Below, piece by piece: positions 2,326-11,002 of a stretch of 64,000 bases of DNA; positions within the stretch are counted from its first letter, which is position 1, and each line of letters begins with the position of its first letter. Location: sequence record OP555980.1. One strand, given 5' to 3'. The translations under genes and the position numbers were made by a program. The stretch is from Escherichia phage vB_EcoM-UFV06. The notes beneath the pieces are model-generated. The model was given only the letters and a program-made list of their open reading frames with translations. It ran no database searches and was not told the origin of the DNA.

Positions 2326-2601
2326 TTATTTCATATTATTGAAATATTCTTCTGCAATTTCGTCGTTATCATGGTAAACTTTAGAAGACAGTTTAACATA
2401 ACCTTCAGCAGTGAACATGTTAATCACAACCTTTACAGTATACCACTGACCATCTTCATTACCCATTACTGCGTAAGTTTCAAACATCGGATGATCAGGA
2501 CCGATAACTTTAATATCATTCACTGTACGACCAAAATCTTCTGAAACACATTTCATAAAGAAGTTGAACAGTTCGCCGTAATTATCCATTTCATTCTCCA
2601 A
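2326..2601 (-). CDS. hypothetical protein
   Basis: 91-aa ORF preceded by early-promoter motif (TTTACA-17-TACTAT) and GGAG SD. Confidence 0.5.
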   Translation of the reverse strand: MENEMDNYGELFNFFMKCVSEDFGRTVNDIKVIGPDHPMFETYAVMGNEDGQWYTVKVVINMFTAEGYVKLSSKVYHDNDEIAEEYFNNMK

Positions 2602-2630
2602 GTTGTTTTCTGTATCAGTAGTTGATAGTT

Positions 2631-2661
2631 GTATAGTACCATAGAAGAACAGGGATGTAAA
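2631..2661 (-). promoter_or_regulatory. early (sigma70-type) promoter, TTTACA-17 bp-TACTAT
   Basis: Minus strand reads ...TTTACAtccctgttcttctatggTACTAT...; upstream of 2326-2601 gene. Confidence 0.5.
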
Positions 2662-2795
2662 CAGTTTTGTGAAAAATTTTTTAAAAAGTTTTGGGGAATT
2701 CTAGGGCAAGGAGGGGAAATTAAAGGATAGGATAATATATTATAAAGGGTAGAAACTAAATGATGCCTAGAGAGGCCTGGAAAGGCTTAGATACC

Positions 2796-2822
2796 AAAAA
2801 GCCCCAACCTTTTGGTCGGGAC
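2796..2822 (-). terminator. intrinsic terminator for minus-strand transcripts
   Basis: Minus strand cccgacc-aaaa-ggttggg followed by gcttttt; just downstream of stop at 2831. Confidence 0.55.
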
Positions 2823-2830
2823 TAAGAATG

Positions 2831-3304
2831 TTATTTGATTTGTTTAGCAGACCAAATGCGGTCTTTAATAATTTTTTGGATGTCTTCAACATACTCAAGA
2901 GAATGAGCATGTGGGTTATCTTTAAAGCTATGAGCACGAGCTAGCTTTTGGCCTTCAGTTTTGATTACTAAAAGCTCTTTAAGGATAGCTTCATATTTGG
3001 AGATAATTCCTTTAACGATATTTTTTTCTTGTGCGACTTTAGGATCTGCTTTAGGAGCAGGTTTACCCGAAGCCTTTGCAAAAGCAGCGCCAGTAGCAAC
3101 TAAACTTTTCCAGGCCATACTAACTGCATTTCCCGTAAATCCTTCCGCTTTCATGTCGCGTGCGAACTGGAATCGTGATTCATCAGAAGCATCTTTGTAA
3201 GAATATTTACCCGCTGCAATGGCTGCTTTTGCGACAGCTTGAATTTCGGTGCTAGATGCTTCATTTAACACCGCTTCATTTAAAAATTGAGTATATGATT
3301 TCAT
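2831..3304 (-). CDS. internal-protein-like head protein with capsid-targeting sequence
   Basis: N-terminus MKSYTQFLNEA resembles the T4 IP targeting sequence MKTYQEFIAE with L-x-E cleavage motif; own TATAAATA upstream; terminator hairpins on both sides. Confidence 0.6.
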   Translation of the reverse strand: MKSYTQFLNEAVLNEASSTEIQAVAKAAIAAGKYSYKDASDESRFQFARDMKAEGFTGNAVSMAWKSLVATGAAFAKASGKPAPKADPKVAQEKNIVKGIISKYEAILKELLVIKTEGQKLARAHSFKDNPHAHSLEYVEDIQKIIKDRIWSAKQIK

Positions 3305-3340
3305 CTTATTTCCTGTTTTAATTCGTGGATTTAATATACT

Positions 3341-3348
3341 TATTTATA
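3341..3348 (-). promoter_or_regulatory. late-promoter motif TATAAATA upstream of internal-protein-like gene
   Basis: Plus TATTTATA at 3341-3348, about 36 nt upstream of ATG at 3304. Confidence 0.45.
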
Positions 3349-3354
3349 CTAAAA

Positions 3355-3378
3355 AGCCCCAACCTTTTGGTCGGGGCT
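3355..3378 (-). terminator. intrinsic terminator (near-identical copy of the 2796-2822 element)
   Basis: AAAAAGCCCCAACCTTTTGGTCGGGGCT versus AAAAAGCCCCAACCTTTTGGTCGGGACT at 2796. Confidence 0.55.
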
Positions 3379-3379
3379 A

Positions 3380-3685
3380 AGCCTTGCGGCAACCTTGTCG
3401 GGGTTCCACCTGCTAAGGCAAGTGTTTGTACGAAACGCCGGGATTCGAACCCGGTTATTAAGCAGTTGACGCTACTCAATATTTTTAAAAGGCCATATCT
3501 CGACCATATCCGAACGTTCCGTCAAAAACGCTACTCGGCTTACGGCAAAGATATTTCCTCGAATCGATAATTCGGTGCGCCGTTTCTGCTGTGATAGTAA
3601 AGAGCCAGAACACAGTAAAACTGTGGGAGGAAACTATACTCCAGGGAACATCAGTCCGACGACTTACCGGTAGCGACCCGGTTTC
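3380..3685 (-). ncRNA. putative small stable RNA(s), rnaC/rnaD-like region
   Basis: About 300 nt without ORF, GC-richer than surroundings; contains tRNA-like T-arm (CCGGGTTCGAATCCCGG on minus strand, plus 3438-3454) with pairing acceptor-like ends; ends at a terminator hairpin. Confidence 0.35.
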
Positions 3686-4036
3686 TTAGTATTCTTTTAA
3701 AGCATCAATTTGTTCACGGCGTTTACGCCATAAATCAATTGCTTCATAAGCAGATTCAGCATTTCGAATTAGCCGACATTTATATAAAGACTTGTGATTT
3801 TGGTATTGCGTAGATAATGGAATTTTATCTAAAAGGTCTTTGCGTTCAAAGTATTCGTAACCATCTAAACCAAATGAACGATTTTTGAGAAATTGCCAAT
3901 GACCATATTCGTTTTCGACATAAACATAATCTGCATGCTGATAAAGCAAATTAATTACACGTTCAGAAATAACAGTATCATTATGATTAAAATAGAATGT
4001 TAAATCATGAACTACTAAATAAACATTACCTTTCAT
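3686..4036 (-). CDS. hypothetical protein
   Basis: 116-aa ORF between tRNA-Arg and the small-RNA region. Confidence 0.5.
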   Translation of the reverse strand: MKGNVYLVVHDLTFYFNHNDTVISERVINLLYQHADYVYVENEYGHWQFLKNRSFGLDGYEYFERKDLLDKIPLSTQYQNHKSLYKCRLIRNAESAYEAIDLWRKRREQIDALKEY

Positions 4037-4054
4037 ATTTTCCTCACTTATAAT

Positions 4055-4130
4055 TGGTCGAGGCAGTAGGGATCGAACCTACGACCCAGGACTTAGAAGG
4101 TCCTTGCTCTTCCTTCTGAGCTATGCCCCG
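4055..4130 (-). tRNA. tRNA-Arg (anticodon UCU), CCA encoded
   Basis: Hand-folded cloverleaf; anticodon loop CTTCTAA; T-arm GTAGG/TTCGATC/CCTAC; acceptor CGGGGCA/TGCCTCG. Confidence 0.8.
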
Positions 4131-4134
4131 TAAT

Positions 4135-4210
4135 TGGGGTGACCGATGGGAGTCGAACCCATGACTACGAGAATCACAATCTCGAGTTCTACCAACTGAA
4201 CTACGGCCAC
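4135..4210 (-). tRNA. tRNA, anticodon GUG (His by code; tentative, no G-1)
   Basis: Cloverleaf with U8, A14, G18G19, T-loop TTCGACT; anticodon loop TTGTGAT; CCA encoded. Confidence 0.55.
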
Positions 4211-4324
4211 ATTAATACCTACTCCAACAATCATGATGTCTTCACACGAAATTAAGAGAAGAGTGATCAGTTCAACCCCTATAATCGCGTCAAGTAGATA
4301 TTAATGTGACAGTTGTCACAAATT

Positions 4325-4399
4325 TGGCGGACGTGATAGGATTCGAACCTATAACCAATCGCTTAACAGGCGATCGCTCTGCCATTGAGCTACACATCC
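4325..4399 (-). tRNA. tRNA-Asn (GUU)
   Basis: Cloverleaf; anticodon stem ATCGC/GCGAT, loop CTGTTAA; T-loop TTCGAAT; CCA encoded. Confidence 0.8.
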
Positions 4400-4403
4400 A
4401 AAT

Positions 4404-4490
4404 TGGTGGGGAGTGATGGAGTCGAACCACCCGAGTCGCAATGACAATGAATTTACAGTCCACACCGCTACCTCTACGGGATAACTCCCC
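4404..4490 (-). tRNA. tRNA-Tyr (GUA), long variable arm
   Basis: 87 nt, 3-bp D-stem, anticodon loop CTGTAAA, 15-nt variable arm, T-loop TTCGACT; CCA encoded. Confidence 0.7.
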
Positions 4491-4496
4491 TTAATT

Positions 4497-4571
4497 TGGT
4501 GGCCCTGGGTGGAATTGAACCACCATCTGGCGATTATGAGTCGCTTGCTTGAACCTTCCAGCTACAGGGCC
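4497..4571 (-). tRNA. tRNA with anticodon CAU (Met or lysidine-modified Ile, as in T4 tRNA-Ile)
   Basis: Cloverleaf; anticodon loop CTCATAA; T-arm GGTGG/TTCAATT/CCACC; acceptor GGCCCTG/CAGGGCC. Confidence 0.75.
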
Positions 4572-4572
4572 T

Positions 4573-4648
4573 TGGTGCTGATTGACGGAATCGAACCGCC
4601 GACATCCTCATTACAAGTGAGGTGCTCTACCTACTGAGCTAAATCAGC
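4573..4648 (-). tRNA. tRNA-Thr (UGU)
   Basis: Cloverleaf; anticodon stem CCTCA/TGAGG, loop CTTGTAA; T-loop TTCGATT. Confidence 0.8.
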
Positions 4649-4653
4649 AAAGC

Positions 4654-4743
4654 TGGCGGAGGCGATAGGATTTGAACCTATGAATCGCCGGAGCGACTGC
4701 CGGTTTTCAAGACCGGTGCATTAAACCACTCTGCCACGCCTCC
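4654..4743 (-). tRNA. tRNA-Ser (UGA), long variable arm
   Basis: 90 nt; anticodon stem CCGGT/ACCGG, loop CTTGAAA; T-loop TTCAAAT; CCA encoded. Confidence 0.8.
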
Positions 4744-4745
4744 AG

Positions 4746-4819
4746 TCTCCATACAAGGATTTGAACCTTGGACCTCCTGATCCCAAATCAGGCGCTCTAC
4801 CAAACTGAGCTACACGGAG
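4746..4819 (-). tRNA. tRNA-Pro (UGG), CCA not encoded
   Basis: Anticodon stem CCTGA/TCAGG, loop TTTGGGA; T-arm CAAGG/TTCAAAT/CCTTG; only 2 nt from tRNA-Ser 5' end. Confidence 0.8.
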
Positions 4820-4829
4820 TAAATTAAAT

Positions 4830-4903
<74 letters not shown>

Positions 4904-4908
4904 AAATT

Positions 4909-4995
4909 TGGTGCGAGAAGTGGGACTCGAACCCACAAGGAAATCATTCCGCAGCATTTTAAGTGCTGTGCCTTTACCAATTTGACCATTCTCGC
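4909..4995 (-). tRNA. tRNA-Leu (UAA), long variable arm
   Basis: 87 nt; anticodon stem CAGCA/TGCTG, loop CTTAAAA; T-loop TTCGAGT; CCA encoded. Confidence 0.8.
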
Positions 4996-4996
4996 G

Positions 4997-5069
4997 CTGG
5001 GAATAAAGGATTCGAACCTTTGCATCTAGCAGTCAAAGTGCTATGCCTTACCAACTTGGCTAATTCCCA
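4997..5069 (-). tRNA. tRNA-Gln (UUG), U1:A72, CCA not encoded
   Basis: Anticodon stem TAGCA/TGCTA, loop CTTTGAC; T-loop TTCGAAT; 1 nt from tRNA-Leu 5' end. Confidence 0.8.
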
Positions 5070-5155
5070 ATTATTAACAAAGGCTCTTTAGCAAGAACCC
5101 TTGATGATAGAGGGTATTAATCAGTGCGGTATGAGTTAATAATAACAAATAATTC

Positions 5156-5680
5156 TTAAAGCAAATTAAACATTTTAACAGTCGGCAAAACAATTTCTTT
5201 TTCTATATAAGAGTATTTAACACTCTCAACTACACGCAAAAAATCATAATCATAATACTCAGAAGCACTGCCTAAAATATTAATAAGTCCTTCAAGCACT
5301 TTATTACCATTCACAAAGAATAAGTCAAATACACGTTCTTCGTCTTCTTCGGATTTATTACCAAGGTCAACTTCTATGTCAAAGACCTTTTTAATGAATT
5401 CTGGATAAAGTTGTTCTGAGAACAGTCCTTCAACCAAGTATTCATAAATAAAAAGCGATTGCTCGCTGAACAAGCCATTACCACAATAACGTTCAGCTTT
5501 AGTACTAGAATGTCTGCTTTTAAACTTCTTTAAAAGATATTGGAATTGTAAGATTTCATGCTCTTCTACGCCAAACAGTGTTTTAGTTTTATAGTTGTCA
5601 CCATCATTTTCCCAGGTAGTGACATCAATTACGTAACCCTGTGGAATTGTAGTACCTAAACAAATATTCATTTTCACCAC
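5156..5680 (-). CDS. hypothetical protein (variable locus between tRNAs and ipI)
   Basis: 174-aa ORF, no capsid-targeting sequence, no motif recognised. Confidence 0.5.
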   Translation of the reverse strand: MVKMNICLGTTIPQGYVIDVTTWENDGDNYKTKTLFGVEEHEILQFQYLLKKFKSRHSSTKAERYCGNGLFSEQSLFIYEYLVEGLFSEQLYPEFIKKVFDIEVDLGNKSEEDEERVFDLFFVNGNKVLEGLINILGSASEYYDYDFLRVVESVKYSYIEKEIVLPTVKMFNLL

Positions 5681-5964
5681 GCTGCATTAATATACGTTTT
5701 CTGAATGCATTCAAGACCTAAAGGATTCTTGAAAATATCATATTCAAGAGGACCTTTTTCTGTTTCAATAAAGAAATCAAAATTTACTGTATTAAATTTA
5801 CGGTCTTCCTTCACTAATTTAACTTGAGAAGATGAACGGTCAACATAAACCTTTTCAACTTCAAAACATGTTAAAACGCCATAATCATCAATCAAGGCTT
5901 TAGCCGCGTCTTGATCATATTTATATCCATTTTCAATGGATGATACTTTCGCATAAAGAATCAT
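5674..5964 (-). CDS. hypothetical protein (variable locus)
   Basis: 96-aa ORF, tightly packed with neighbours. Confidence 0.5.
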   Translation of the reverse strand: MILYAKVSSIENGYKYDQDAAKALIDDYGVLTCFEVEKVYVDRSSSQVKLVKEDRKFNTVNFDFFIETEKGPLEYDIFKNPLGLECIQKTYINAAW

Positions 5965-5966
5965 TA

Positions 5967-6371
5967 TTAACCTTTATCAACAATAGTATGTGTATGGGCA
6001 TTTACGATTTGCCACCAGTCAAAACTATCGCCAAATCGTTTTGATTTATTGTCTTCAATAATTTGGCGTAATTCATCTTCTGTTTCAGCATACGCAATCA
6101 AATCATCATATCCACCGCAAGGATAGTAATTATCGCCTGCGAACAAAAGAAAATTTACTTTAGATGGGTCTACATAATAATGCTCTTTAGGATATTTAGT
6201 TCCTTTCCAATCAGTTACTTCAACATAACGATAAGAAAATCCATTTTTACTTTCAACCCAACTCCACGCTTCAAAAGGAGTATTAAAAACTCTATCAGGT
6301 ATTAAATTACCTTCAAAATGAGAAGGATTTGCATAATCCCCAGCATAAACATAATATTCGTTAATATTCAT
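5967..6371 (-). CDS. hypothetical protein (variable locus)
   Basis: 134-aa ORF; Tyr/Trp-rich; stop abuts next gene start. Confidence 0.5.
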   Translation of the reverse strand: MNINEYYVYAGDYANPSHFEGNLIPDRVFNTPFEAWSWVESKNGFSYRYVEVTDWKGTKYPKEHYYVDPSKVNFLLFAGDNYYPCGGYDDLIAYAETEDELRQIIEDNKSKRFGDSFDWWQIVNAHTHTIVDKG

Positions 6372-6557
6372 TTATTCACCTTTAGAAATTTTATCCATAA
6401 CAATAGCGATTAAACCAATTAAAAATGCTACTACAAGTGAAAAAACATTTTCTGCTGTAGTCAATAATCCGCATATAAATCCAACAAACATTGAAAAACT
6501 AAAAGCGGAAGCAGAAATTGCAATAGCAACATTTCGAATTAATTCACAACGTTTCAT
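6372..6557 (-). CDS. hypothetical small membrane protein
   Basis: 61 aa with two hydrophobic helices; early-promoter motif and GAGGAG SD upstream. Confidence 0.45.
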   Translation of the reverse strand: MKRCELIRNVAIAISASAFSFSMFVGFICGLLTTAENVFSLVVAFLIGLIAIVMDKISKGE

Positions 6558-6585
6558 TTTATTCTCCTCGGTAGTTGATAGGGTA

Positions 6586-6614
6586 ATAGTATCACAACTA
6601 AAACCCTATGTAAA
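6586..6614 (-). promoter_or_regulatory. early promoter, TTTACA-17 bp-TACTAT
   Basis: Same motif family; upstream of 61-aa gene. Confidence 0.5.
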
Positions 6615-6633
6615 CAACTTTGTGAAATATTTA

Positions 6634-6918
6634 TTACAAAAGATTTTTAGCAATAATTTTAAGCTGAGCTACTGAAATATGCTTGGCTTTAAACAAAGCA
6701 GTTTCTTCAGCAGGGGAGATAACGATTGTAGCACCATCTTTCTTAGCGGACCATCCATCACCCAGGTAAACAGTACCTTTGACTTCTTCGCCATCAACCA
6801 GGCTAATCATCGGTTTACCTTCACGTCCTTTGTTTGCTTTAATAACTTCAGAAGTAAGGGTCGCTTCAGTCAAAGTAGAAGCGTTAGTGGTTGAAGTGAA
6901 TTCTTGATAAGTTTTCAT
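6634..6918 (-). CDS. ipI: internal protein I-like, capsid-targeting sequence at N-terminus
   Basis: MKTYQEF... N-terminus; 94 aa; adjacent to 57B as in T4; early-promoter motif upstream. Confidence 0.55.
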   Translation of the reverse strand: MKTYQEFTSTTNASTLTEATLTSEVIKANKGREGKPMISLVDGEEVKGTVYLGDGWSAKKDGATIVISPAEETALFKAKHISVAQLKIIAKNLL

Positions 6919-6948
6919 TTTATTTTCCTAATTAATTTTGATGAGGTA

Positions 6949-6977
6949 ATAGTATCACTACCTCATCAGCATGTAAA
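6949..6977 (-). promoter_or_regulatory. early promoter, TTTACA-17 bp-TACTAT, with embedded 9-bp inverted repeat
   Basis: Minus strand ...gttgTTTACAtgctgatgaggtagtgaTACTATtacctcatc...; upstream of ipI-like gene. Confidence 0.5.
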
Positions 6978-6990
6978 CAACTTTGTGAAA

Positions 6991-7687
<697 letters not shown>

Positions 7688-7688
<1 letters not shown>

Positions 7689-8401
7689 TATAGTACCTTT
7701 AGTGTATTTTTAATTTTAGAAAAAAGTTCTTCAAGAGAACCATCGTTTGTAATTACTAAATCGCCATCACGAATTGGCAATCCAGCTTCTGTAATATGTG
7801 TATCATTGGATTTTTGACCAGGACGAACTACATGAATTACTGTAGCACCCATCGCCCTAGCCGCATCCATTTCATGATCTTGACGAGTATCAGGAACGAT
7901 ATAATAATCATAACCTGAGTTAAATTTATCAAGATAATCTAAAGCAAATAATTTTACCCAATACATGCGGTCGAAGTTATTAACAATCAAATCCGTACCT
8001 AGGGCTTGCATCAGACGACGGACTGACCATTGATCTTCAATATTATTTATAACGTCAGCAATCTTGTTAAATGCTACGAAATTAACTGCGTCATCAAAAA
8101 CAAACACACCTTTAATTGGGCTTTTACCATTAAGATAGCAAAATGCTTGTTCCATAATCGTGATTACTTCTAATTTAGTCAGATTTAAATTAGTCTCACG
8201 ATCATAGTCAATTCCTTCAAACTCTTTACGAGTTAAGCAAGGATAGCCAGTGTTTGCTGCAAATACACCCCATGCATAAGCCAATGCATCCTTAATAGGA
8301 CCAGCAAGTTGGTATTTAACTGCAGAATAATTGCTCATGATAAAATCAGCAGTAGTATCTTTTCCACTACGCTTTACACCACTTAAAAAGATTAGTTTCA
8401 T
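7688..8401 (-). CDS. 1: gp1 deoxynucleoside monophosphate kinase
   Basis: Starts MKLIFLSGVKRSGKDT (P-loop); ATG at 8401-8399; the track ORF extends upstream from a non-ATG start. Confidence 0.85.
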
Positions 8402-8450
8402 GTGTTTCTCCTCAAATTTAATTAAGATTATAACACACAAAACTGAAGCA

Positions 8451-8981
8451 TTAAACTTCTGCTATAATTTTTCCATCTTTTTCTACTTGAAAATAGGTGT
8501 AAGGAATCGTTGCAGTACATACTAAAGCCGGGTCTGAATCTTCCGTATAGCTAAATTCTACTTCAGATAGGTCAGAAACCCAAGGCTTATAAAAATTTAT
8601 TGACATCACGATTTCAGTTTTGCTATTATCTAAGATGTAAAGCGTAATGTACTCAGGACCTGTTTTTTGGGCAGTATTTTCACCTGTAAGATAGTTGCTA
8701 GTTCCTAGCATCCATTCATACATTCCTATCCATGACTTAAGTTCTTCATCAACTATAAATCTCACAATGAGTGGATCATACTCAAATGTAACACCTGGAC
8801 GTTGTGCTCGGCCCAGTCCAAACGGCCCAGTCACGGTATCAGTAACAGGTATCCTAATTCCCGGAATAGGAACTGACTGAGCATTTAAAGTAAAAGCAGA
8901 TGTAGTATTACTATGCGGTATTGATACTACAAAGTTAGTTGTATTTGCTTGGTTAAAAATTTGTTGTAGTGCTTGCGACAT
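8451..8981 (-). CDS. 3: gp3 tail tube terminator/completion protein
   Basis: 176 aa from MSQALQQIFNQ... (ATG at 8981-8979, GAGGA SD); order 1-3-2-4 as in T4. Confidence 0.8.
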   Translation of the reverse strand: MSQALQQIFNQANTTNFVVSIPHSNTTSAFTLNAQSVPIPGIRIPVTDTVTGPFGLGRAQRPGVTFEYDPLIVRFIVDEELKSWIGMYEWMLGTSNYLTGENTAQKTGPEYITLYILDNSKTEIVMSINFYKPWVSDLSEVEFSYTEDSDPALVCTATIPYTYFQVEKDGKIIAEV

Positions 8982-9087
8982 ATATTCCTCATAATGCTTC
9001 ATAAATGTTGGTGGTATAATGGGTCTAAGTCCCTTCCATTCAATTCCAATTAGAACAAACAATAGAAAAGAATGGAAGATAATAGAA

Positions 9088-9912
9088 TTAAATATTTGAC
9101 CAGACTTTGTTTGCAGAGAAACGTTTTCCTTTTGAAACGAACTGCTGAAGTGGCATCAACACAACGTTCGCCCAGTCTTTCGGGGCGATTTCAACAAGGC
9201 TACCCATAATATTACCGGGTATATATGCCTTAATCATTTGGTCTGCACCCCTAAATCCTTTCACTTGACTCCAATCAATTTTTAATTTCGTTTTATTAGT
9301 AATAGTAGGTGTATTTGAGTATTGCTTTAAAAGCTCTTCTAGAAATTGCTGACGAGCTTTAGGTGGAATATAGTGCAAGTTTAATCCGTACATTAAATTA
9401 TGCTTACCTAAACCAAGGTAAATTATCAAAGGAAATTTATCCCAGTAAGGAAGAGTTTCCTTGTGTTTAGCATCATAAGCAAAAGCATATATTCGTCCCG
9501 GCTGCGGGCGAACAACTTTATGTCCTTTTACTTGCTTAATAGTTTCAGCAAACCATTTTCTGGTTTTATTATTAATTGCTGCGCCTTCATTACGAATTTT
9601 ATCACGCAATGTTTGTCTGAATGAATTTATCATAAGCAGTTGTCTTTCTTGCTTATTGAGCTTATTCATTGGTTTTGATTCAAGCTTTTGAATCTTTTCA
9701 GCTGTTTTAATTCCTGAAGCATATTTTGACATTGCCGAAGTAAACGTAGAGTATTTGATTCCTCTTTCTTCAGCAAATTGTTTTCCTGTCATTCCTTTTG
9801 CTTTGGCCTTTTTATATTCAAGACCTATTTGAATCCATTTCTTTTCGTTTAATGATTGCTTAACCTTTGGAACTTGGGGAGTGCTTTCATTAATTATTTG
9901 AAAAATAGCCAT
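9088..9912 (-). CDS. 2: gp2 DNA end-protector protein
   Basis: 274 aa as T4 gp2; synteny. Confidence 0.8.
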
Positions 9913-10364
9913 TATGCCCCCTTAAAGCCAAGAGCTCGTAATCCATCTTCTGTTAGAATTCTAAATTTTATTCCACGCTTTTCAGCTAAAGCTTGCGCTG
10001 CTTTCCATTTGTCAGTGTTCACAGACCAGGTATAAATTTCATTCATAAATCTTTTCTTCGCTGCGGTTGTTAGATGTGCTGGTTTAACTGGTGGTTGTGT
10101 TTCTTTTTTAGGCTTTATTTCAATAAAAAATTCTTGTCCAGAAGAATCTTTCATCCAAATATCCATGAAGTATCTACGTTTTTTCCCTTCGGCATTACAA
10201 AAATAAGGAATTACTGCTGTTTCACTACCCCATGCAATAATTTCTGGATTTTTATCTAACCATTCAAAAAAGAATTTTTCCCAATTTGATCTATACGTAA
10301 TTTTTTTAGGGTCACCTCTATACTTTGATATATTTTTAGGAACCCATTTTCCAGAATATGCCAT
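9912..10364 (-). CDS. 4: gp4 head completion protein
   Basis: 150 aa as T4 gp4; late promoter on minus strand upstream. Confidence 0.8.
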
Positions 10365-10375
10365 TGGATTCTCCT

Positions 10376-10398
10376 TATAAATAGATAATATATTTATA
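10376..10398. promoter_or_regulatory. divergent late promoters for gene 53 (+) and gene 4 (-)
   Basis: TATAAATA at 10376-10383 (+) and TATTTATA at 10391-10398. Confidence 0.5.
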
Positions 10399-10411
10399 AA
10401 CAGGAGGGCCC

Positions 10412-11002
10412 ATGCTCTTTACATTTTTTGATCCGATTGAATATGCGGCCAAAACGGTGAATAAAAACGCGCCGACTATTCCTATGACAGATATTTTTAG
10501 AAACTATAAAGACTATTTCAAACGTGCTCTTGCGGGATACCGCTTACGTACTTATTATATTAAAGGTTCACCTCGTCCCGAAGAATTAGCAAATACTATA
10601 TATGGAAATCCACAGTTGTATTGGGTTTTATTGATGTGTAATGATAATTATGATCCATATTATGGATGGATTACTTCACAAGAAGCTGCTTATCAAGCAT
10701 CTATACAAAAATACAAAAACGTAGGTGGAGACCAAATAGTATATCATGTAAATGAGAACGGTGAAAAATTTTATAATTTAGTATCATACGATGATAATCC
10801 ATATGTTTGGTATGACAAAGGTGATAAAGCTAGAAAATATCCTCAATATGAAGGAGCACTTGCTGCTGTTAATACGTATGAAGCTGCTGTTCTTGAAAAT
10901 GAAAAACTTCGTCAAATAAAAATAATAGCAAAATCAGACATCAATTCATTTATGAACGACCTTATACGTATAATGGAGAAATCTTATGGAAATGATAAGT
11001 AA
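10412..11002 (+). CDS. 53: gp53 baseplate wedge protein
   Basis: 196 aa as T4 gp53; TATAAATA upstream; precedes gene 5. Confidence 0.8.
   Translation: MLFTFFDPIEYAAKTVNKNAPTIPMTDIFRNYKDYFKRALAGYRLRTYYIKGSPRPEELANTIYGNPQLYWVLLMCNDNYDPYYGWITSQEAAYQASIQKYKNVGGDQIVYHVNENGEKFYNLVSYDDNPYVWYDKGDKARKYPQYEGALAAVNTYEAAVLENEKLRQIKIIAKSDINSFMNDLIRIMEKSYGNDK

Follow-up and report, generated by a model that had tools for sequence, protein, structure and literature searches.

Four small genes between the tRNA cluster and ipI of Escherichia phage vB_EcoM-UFV06 and their counterparts in T4 and RB32

Are the four small genes that lie between the tRNA cluster and the internal-protein gene ipI of Escherichia phage vB_EcoM-UFV06 acquired cargo, or do they belong to the standing gene complement of T-even phages? 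The question is raised by an initial annotation of a 64,000-nucleotide stretch of this phage (record OP555980.1; this whole stretch is referred to as the window), which described positions 5156-6557 as four tightly packed, non-T4-like genes in a hypervariable locus and as the likeliest place in the window for an undescribed anti-defence or host-modulating function. Here, we compared these genes with those of T4, RB32 and other relatives. Three of them correspond to the T4 genes trna.4, trna.3 and trna.2, and the fourth, referred to here as ORF171 (open reading frame of 171 amino acids), corresponds to RB32ORF135c of phage RB32; about this identification and the anatomy of the block we have very little doubt.

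Identity and layout of the four genes

The genes, with coordinates from the list of open reading frames, and the promoter upstream of them are as follows.

5156..5680 from a GTG start or 5156..5671 from an ATG start, minus strand: ORF171 (174 amino acids if the GTG is the start)
5674..5964, minus strand: trna.2, 96 amino acids
5967..6371, minus strand: trna.3, 134 amino acids
6372..6557, minus strand: trna.4, 61 amino acids
6586..6614, minus strand: T4-type early (sigma-70) promoter, TTTACA, 17-nt spacer and TACTAT, with an upstream TG

The T4 reference record places trna.2, trna.3 and trna.4 between tRNA-Gln and ipI, the same place as here, and the T4 genes at 72,628-73,514 align with this DNA. 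Amino-acid identity to T4 is 89.6% for trna.2, 85.3% for trna.3 and 100% for trna.4 (61/61 residues). Position, order, strand and spacing are also those of the T4 genes (NP_049746, NP_049747 and NP_049748 for trna.2, trna.3 and trna.4; PHROGs 2023, 1411 and 1692), and T4 has the same type of early promoter upstream of trna.4. Thus, the term non-T4-like does not describe three of the four genes, which are T4 genes (85-100% identity) at the T4 position. The locus differs from that of T4 in two respects: an extra gene, ORF171, follows trna.2, and the copy of trna.3 is a mosaic. The RB32 annotation uses the same three gene names and has RB32ORF135c as the fourth gene, described as 'similar to RB69ORF151c, 44RRORF127c'; ORF171 is 99% identical to RB32ORF135c, is of the RB69ORF151c type, and lies directly after trna.2 as in RB32. 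Segment 5070-6640 has 100% identity with Escherichia phage vB_EcoM-UFV09 and with three sister isolates; in all, 831 phage records match it; to judge by its sequence, the phage is a Tequatrovirus. These genes are already known, as T4 trna.2-4 and as a gene noted in RB32 and RB69, and the main value of the comparison is one of correction, i.e. the block is not to be flagged as novel cargo.

The initial annotation had proposed a comparison of synteny across T4-like genomes, and this comparison speaks against a hypervariable locus. Eight named relatives (JS10, CM8, KIT03, ASO78A, T6, IME341, MLF4 and HY126) share the order 1-57A-57B-[ip genes]-trna.4-trna.3-trna.2-(ORF171)-tRNAs. It is conserved across Tequatrovirus, Dhakavirus and a Mosigvirus-like phage, and the block is syntenic in all Tevenvirinae loci examined. 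In translated searches of a phage collection, trna.4 was found in 790 records, trna.3 in 763, trna.2 in 803 and ORF171 in 583, and trna.2, trna.3 and trna.4 were restricted to Tevenvirinae and close relatives. All four proteins match PHROGs that are labelled function unknown: trna.4 matches PHROG 1692 (6e-35, positions 1-61), trna.3 PHROG 1411 (2.7e-50), trna.2 PHROG 2023 (1.3e-47) and ORF171 PHROG 2290 (2.1e-68, 164/165 positions). We consider it very likely that the block is the conserved, protein-coding and promoter-proximal part of the T-even tRNA region, made up of early accessory genes, and not acquired cargo.

The description of four tightly packed minus-strand reading frames (174, 96, 134 and 61 amino acids) was accurate in its coordinates, as it was for the abutting junction at 6371-6372, where the trna.4 stop lies directly against the trna.3 ATG; the remaining gene pairs are spaced by 2 nt. 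An overlap at 5674-5680, also described, most likely does not exist. ORF171 can start at a GTG at 5680, giving 174 amino acids, or at an ATG at 5671, giving 171. Because UFV09 and RB32 are annotated with the latter and homologues begin there, we regard the ATG as the most likely start, and the apparent overlap would therefore be a product of choosing the longest reading frame. Reading the sequence, we found Shine-Dalgarno-like motifs (GGAG/AGGT/GGTG) ahead of all four starts. The four N-termini (MKRCELI, MNINEYY, MILYAKV and MNICLGT) lack a capsid-targeting leader of the MKTYQEF type, as had been noted from the start, and in this the genes differ from those of the T-even internal-protein cassettes; ipI (6634-6918), unlike the four, opens with MKTYQEF. 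The early promoter that had been proposed at 6586-6614 was found as well, with nine of 12 consensus matches plus the upstream TG (read from 6614 to 6586). A second copy of the motif lies upstream of ipI at 6977-6949, and the best reading of this arrangement is that the promoter at 6586-6614 drives trna.4 and the genes downstream.

In comparisons with relatives, the ratio of non-synonymous to synonymous substitution rates (dN/dS) was 0.00 for trna.4, 0.09-0.33 for trna.2, 0.21-0.37 for trna.3 and 0.04-0.18 for ORF171. Because these ratios lie between 0 and 0.37, all four reading frames are real genes under purifying selection.

The ORF171 family and the tRNA region

T4 lacks a segment of ~5176-5691, which is exactly ORF171, and among Tequatroviruses the gene is present in some and absent from others. 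Because homologues adjoin trna.2 both in Dhakavirus JS10 and in a Mosigvirus-like phage, and those of Klebsiella and Aeromonas phages are close to tRNA clusters or within them, the more parsimonious reading is that ORF171 is an old Straboviridae gene that was lost in T4 rather than gained here.

The family was delineated with an exhaustive profile search in which members were clustered at 50% identity, which gives a lower bound of 1006 cluster representatives at E<=1e-3, 482 of them at E<=1e-10; the family extends down to ~25% identity with the invariant residues kept. The 150 best representatives listed are all stand-alone proteins of 118-200 amino acids, so that among these there was no domain fusion to hint at a function. 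Members share the motif GY..(V/I)T(T/S)WEND(G/A)D.Y.T as well as GN and RV.E; E21, D23 and D25 are the sole invariant residues among 120 diverse members, and G12, W20, N22, G34, F50, G64, N65, R146 and V147 are at least 90% conserved. This fixed acidic turn suggests a ligand- or metal-binding site and not a fast-evolving interaction surface. We also considered a HAD-type (DxDxT) or an EF-hand-type site and rejected both, given that the motif spacing misfits by eye and the predicted hairpin topology argues against them. No member had a meaningful Pfam match, and the family profile found no relative in the PDB. Within the ORF171 coding sequence, at 5454-5475 on the minus strand, there are two overlapping terminator-like hairpins, followed by T-runs; the number of terminator-like sites in the region is no greater than in shuffled sequence.

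We also searched for the family in bacteria and archaea by two scans of 185,579 species genomes. The scan with alignment A2 returned no relative, and 15 loci matched a degenerate DNA pattern; three of these were true members, all on metagenome-assembled contigs. With just three true members in bacterial and archaeal genomes, the family is effectively confined to phages. ORF171 shows no material difference from the RB32ORF135c/RB69ORF151c/44RRORF127c family (PHROG 2290); what is new for this PHROG is the size of the family, the E/D/D residues, the near-absence from bacterial genomes and the frequent adjacency to tRNA genes.

This adjacency was assessed in 45 representatives that are <60% identical to one another. 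Co-oriented tRNA genes were present within 5 kb of ORF171 in 11/11 T4-like representatives and in 12/34 from other lineages, with the tRNA genes within 2 kb in ten of these 12; the latter lineages include 300-500 kb contigs (probable jumbo phages) and cyanophage S-CBWM1. Compared with a background of 10%, 12/34 corresponds to a binomial P of 7e-5, where the background is an assumed, generous value and the lineages are not fully independent. Among 149 same-strand open reading frames around the 34 non-T4-like representatives, the domains seen most often were NAMPT/NAPRTase (three), RNA ligase 1 (three), the PolyA_pol head domain of the CCA-adding type (three), AAA ATPase (three), RNA ligase 2 (two), NUDIX plus cytidylyltransferase (NadR-like; two), Thg1 (one) and PNKP phosphatase (one). 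Based on these neighbours, ORF171 tends toward the tRNA/RNA-repair/NAD-salvage (nicotinamide adenine dinucleotide) accessory region of large lytic phages. On one contig in the European Nucleotide Archive (KOPF15-1 scaffold_266, 3528-10600), a distant homologue of ORF171 sits between cREC_REC and NAMPT, with a NadR-like gene (cytidylyltransferase plus NUDIX) beyond the former and a Dda-like PIF1 helicase and then RNA ligase 1 beyond the latter. This combination of a NadR-like gene with NAMPT resembles the published phage NAD+ reconstitution pathway, here beside RNA-repair genes.

These data raise the alternative that the link to tRNA is functional and not positional, i.e. that ORF171, possibly together with its neighbours, acts directly on tRNA by maturing, repairing or protecting phage or host tRNAs, or by inhibiting host nucleases that cleave tRNA in defence. 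Such an activity would agree with the co-oriented tRNA genes within 5 kb in 23 of the 45 representatives, with a homologue inside the tRNA cluster of Klebsiella phage Roth04, with neighbouring genes for both RNA ligases, a CCA-adding-type nucleotidyltransferase, Thg1 and PNKP, and with the invariant E-x-D-x-D turn, which would suit a metal-dependent activity. However, 22 of the 34 non-T4-like representatives are without a tRNA gene within 5 kb, small accessory genes generally accumulate in the tRNA regions of large phages, and ORF171 is unlike any known RNA-processing fold or family. Moreover, T4 has lost ORF171 yet retains eight tRNAs, and trna.2, trna.3 and trna.4 are limited to Tevenvirinae and close relatives. 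We consider a direct action on tRNA unlikely, and prefer to regard the four genes as conserved early accessory genes of the tRNA region.

Allelic variation in trna.3 and a candidate role for the block

The acidic trna.3 protein has two parts with different histories. For the comparison of its alleles, we used phages in which 57B is 99%, trna.4 100% and trna.2 >90% identical to this DNA, and distinguished the following parts and classes.

6156-6371, minus strand: N-terminal half of trna.3, residues 1-72, allelically variable
5967-6155, minus strand: C-terminal half of trna.3, residues 73-134, conserved
Class A (T4, RB32 and T6): N-terminal half 92-93%, C-terminal half 78-80% identical to this DNA
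Class B: N-terminal half ~50%, C-terminal half 73% identical to this DNA
Class C: N-terminal half 29-31%, C-terminal half 73-75% identical to this DNA

In phage MLF4, nucleotide homology breaks precisely at 6144-6370, within trna.3. Overall, phages with flanking genes at 94-100% identity have N-terminal halves of trna.3 at 29-50% identity. Between classes, dS is saturated in both halves (1.0-1.5), compared with ~0.1-0.2 in the flanking genes, while dN is 0.42-0.76 in the N-terminal half versus 0.17-0.19 in the C-terminal half. By these measures, the N-terminal variants, of which there are at least three, are alleles of old standing that recombination has moved between phages; the C-terminal half is constrained and the N-terminal half either weakly constrained or diversified. 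The C-terminal half carries NFLLFAGDNYYPxGGYxDL...FDWWQIV, the motif columns of which are invariant in alignment A1, and this domain is found on its own in unrelated phages. The AlphaFold2 model of trna.3 has a predicted local distance difference test score (pLDDT) of 77.5, and its relatives carry a precomputed Pfam tag, PF26894. We also considered an internal duplication as the origin of the two halves; it was unsupported (local score z 0.7, with 458/2000 shuffles equally good).

The trna.3 copy in this DNA is a recombinant as well. In its N-terminal half it resembles T4 (92%, dS 0.13); its C-terminal half is 78% identical to T4 at the amino-acid level (dS 0.56) and shows no difference from the one in Salmonella phage SG1 and Escherichia phage EC121. 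Protein P0006 has the opposite combination of halves.

By contrast with trna.3, trna.4 hardly varies: it is at least 99% identical in 428 of its 790 phage records, and in ten comparisons there were one to six synonymous and 0 non-synonymous changes (dN 0 versus dS 0.02-0.16). Hydrophobic stretches at approximately residues 9-33 and 38-54 (Kyte-Doolittle, 15-residue windows up to 3.0) indicate that trna.4 is probably a small inner-membrane protein with a two-helix hairpin. A search of the literature for a function of trna.3 or trna.4 found none. For trna.2, the T4 counterpart of which is UniProt P13324 and relatives of which carry the precomputed Pfam tag PF27001, there are published protein data. 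Trna.2 was detected by mass spectrometry in T4-infected cells, and in a pulldown Inh and Trna.2 were the sole T4 proteins enriched with the wild-type defence protein DRT1 compared with a mutant inactive in reverse transcription (PMC13275509).

Are these genes needed by the phage? Knock-down of T4 genes by CRISPRi-ART gave values of -0.63 for trna.2, -0.02 for trna.3 and 0.57 for trna.4, all scored as 'Not Fit', which means no fitness effect in a laboratory host; prior essentiality was listed as unknown (PMC11879866 supplement). On these published laboratory-host data, trna.2, trna.3 and trna.4 are dispensable in T4. Conserved trna.x proteins at the same place as in T4, with 'Not Fit' knock-downs in a laboratory host, are largely what the initial annotation had named as an outcome contrary to its own proposal.

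Small size, acidity (a predicted isoelectric point of 4.6-4.8 for trna.3, trna.2 and ORF171 alike), early expression, the neighbours (ipI, Acb1 and tRNAs), the trna.3 alleles and the DRT1 pulldown point to a role directed at the host or its defences, and small acidic phage inhibitors of host defence (IPI, Dmd, AcrIIC3 and p56) can be counted among the closest known systems. In our working model, an immediate-early sigma-70-type promoter inside the repeat that ends the ipI cassette would drive the four close-packed genes, which are probably translationally coupled, and transcription probably runs on into the co-oriented tRNA cluster. In T4, a promoter ~1 kb upstream gives rise to the tRNAs, as described in the T4 literature of the 1980s. 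The proteins would be early accessory factors that bind host or defence components and are not part of core phage metabolism; the variable N-terminal half of trna.3 would serve in target recognition, and ORF171 would be a ligand or metal binder, by way of its E-x-D-x-D turn, tied to a tRNA/RNA-repair/NAD-salvage module. We lean toward an accessory, host-directed role of the block; a role specifically in counter-defence is possible but on balance doubtful. Still less likely, as a joint proposition, is that ORF171 partners tRNA clusters, RNA-repair and NAD-salvage genes, that trna.3 is a modular inhibitor and that Trna.2 is a true ligand of the DRT1 defence filament. If it were true, ORF171 might, for example, neutralise or repair the damage from host defences that target tRNA, and the swappable N-terminal half of trna.3 would decide which host target is bound.

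Several observations weigh against these functional proposals. As the initial annotation itself held, function is not established from the sequence: in Pfam, NCBIfam and PADLOC scans none of the four proteins had a significant match, and PDB sequence searches with profiles A1, A2 and A3 found no relative. The structure model of ORF171 is poor (pLDDT 59.6, from a shallow alignment), and the association of ORF171 with tRNA genes may be a side effect of the clustering of accessory genes. Typical arms-race proteins are not as strongly conserved as trna.4, trna.2 and ORF171, and an arms race would fit only part of the block. For trna.3, the alleles are old and not fast-evolving; because dS is saturated and dN/dS is <1, positive selection on this gene is not demonstrated. 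T4 remains sensitive to DRT1 and its escape mutations map to dda (PMC13275509); because of both, Trna.2 is not an effective DRT1 inhibitor; the link between the two is weak and the pulldown may be incidental. Finally, read-through into the tRNA genes is plausible from the layout and from the older T4 literature, but annotators of phage ASO78A predicted a terminator just before tRNA-Gln, at the equivalent place.

Some candidate matches were discarded. Weak matches to TusC, REase_II and DUF7554 were far under the cut-offs, and a PDB match to a GFP-based calcium sensor was due to chance, involving only the GFP string '...DDGNYKT...'. A structure search of BFVD returned solely uncharacterised phage proteins.

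From these data we see three modest leads. The ORF171 family is large, phage-restricted, marked by an acidic motif and unusually often adjacent to tRNA genes, and is thus a sensible candidate for structural and deletion studies. In trna.3, a constrained C-terminal domain is combined with old N-terminal alleles, as one would expect if the protein were modular and interacted with the host. And two T4 proteins were enriched with active DRT1, Trna.2 among them.

The ip cassette and the tRNA cluster on either side

On both sides of the block are the following features.

6634..6918, minus strand: ipI, internal protein I (anti-GmrSD); Pfam IPI_T4 at 1.3e-51, 90.5% identity to T4 IPI
6991..7446, minus strand: 57B, which is Acb1, an anti-CBASS (cyclic-oligonucleotide-based antiphage signalling system) phosphodiesterase; Pfam Acb1 at 1.1e-59, 98.7% identity to T4 57B
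6543..6628 and 6904..6991: the two copies of a direct repeat that brackets ipI, ~85 nt at 81% identity
5070..5155, minus strand: 86-nt spacer from the ORF171 stop to tRNA-Gln, with a short hairpin ACCCT...AGGGT
4055..5069, minus strand: 11 co-oriented tRNA genes (Gln, Leu, Gly, Pro, Ser, Thr, Met, Tyr, Asn, His and Arg)

In the direct repeat, D1 covers 54 nt at 81% identity and D2 26 nt at 81%. Each copy contains an early promoter and a hairpin, as well as a ribosome-binding site and first codons; in the copy at 6543-6628 the hairpin is ATAGGGT...ACCCTAT (-17.4 kcal/mol, z -2.3). The repeats enclose ipI alone and end at the start of trna.4. Similarly, the RB32 annotators noted 43-bp direct repeats on either side of the ip genes. 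The ipI repeats match the promoter-early stem-loop (PeSL) cassettes described earlier (Arbiol et al. 2010, PMC2839356; Comeau et al. 2014, PMC4122927), and the four genes lie outside the cassette; being syntenically stable, they are neighbours of the plastic part of the PeSL hyperplastic regions and not members of it. Among relatives, one to five differing ip genes lie between 57B and trna.4, and conservation is high on both sides of the ipI locus (HIDEN-SEQ preprint). Thus, the exchange hot spot invoked by the initial annotation exists in the ip cassette between the repeats and does not extend to the four-gene block. By sequence comparison, the elements that vary are the ip cassette, the tRNA cluster, ORF171, which some phages lack, and the first half of trna.3.

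This arrangement bears on the original proposal, namely that the four genes are horizontally gained and non-T4-like, sit in a hypervariable locus and are each likely to have a novel anti-restriction or host-takeover function resembling that of IPI. The neighbourhood does hold exchangeable anti-defence cassettes, with ip sets that differ in RB32, CM8, T6 and KIT03; Bas37_0260, a gene at the ipI locus, inhibits McrBC (HIDEN-SEQ preprint), and ORF171 is patchy among Tequatroviruses. Against this stand the identity of three genes to T4 genes at the same position, the synteny of the block in every Tevenvirinae locus examined and its presence in ~760-800 phage records, the repeats, which bracket ipI only and stop where trna.4 starts, and the placement of ORF171 in relatives, which makes its loss in T4 the more parsimonious event. 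We regard acquired cargo as a very improbable explanation. A further alternative is that the frames arose by chance within the tRNA leader transcript and encode no functional proteins; the lack of known domains, the small size and the lack of a knock-down phenotype in T4 might point to this. Its probability is negligible given purifying selection on all four genes, a ribosome-binding site for each, PHROG matches at E 1e-35 to 1e-68, Trna.2 seen by mass spectrometry in T4-infected cells, and an ORF171 family that reaches ~25% identity with invariant residues.

Shigella phage CM8 illustrates the variation on both sides. Upstream of trna.4 it has ipI in duplicate, Ip5, Ip8 and a truncated fragment of 57B, and its tRNA cluster holds HNH and SegB-like endonuclease genes. 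In this phage, to go by its gene content, both flanks are plastic compared with the stable four-gene block.

On the tRNA side, 5000-5175 is 96.6% identical to T4, and scanning the 86-nt spacer for terminator-like sites gave none. Among relatives, the tRNA cluster gains and loses tRNAs and homing-endonuclease genes; here it is without segB. Homing of SegB replaces the T2L-type tRNA arrangement (PMC2330249), and the present cluster has the Met, Tyr, Asn and Arg tRNAs of that arrangement, plus tRNA-His. A 114-nt gap in which no gene was detected separates tRNA-His from tRNA-Asn (4211-4324). An Rfam scan of 2500-7600 gave nothing but tRNAs. Further on, an ORF-poor gap contains, on the minus strand, homologues of the T4 stable RNAs rnaC (3429-3567, 98.6% identity to T4) and rnaD (3574-3686, 78.8%), for which no Rfam model gave a detection. 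A 116-amino-acid reading frame at 3686-4036 (minus strand, PHROG 3355) separates them from tRNA-Arg, which they directly abut in T4. Gene names clash at this point: the CM8 record labels the homologue of this frame 'trna.2 protein', and in the SegB paper 'trna.1/trna.2' are T2L reading frames inside the tRNA cluster (PMC2330249); neither is related to T4 trna.2.

Finally, a 157-amino-acid reading frame at 2831-3304 (minus strand, PHROG 2280) starts with MKSYTQFLNEA, resembling the capsid-targeting leader of internal proteins. It is the counterpart of RB32ORF133c, which was annotated with a flanking 34-bp imperfect direct repeat, and may represent a further cassette of the internal-protein type beyond the tRNA cluster.

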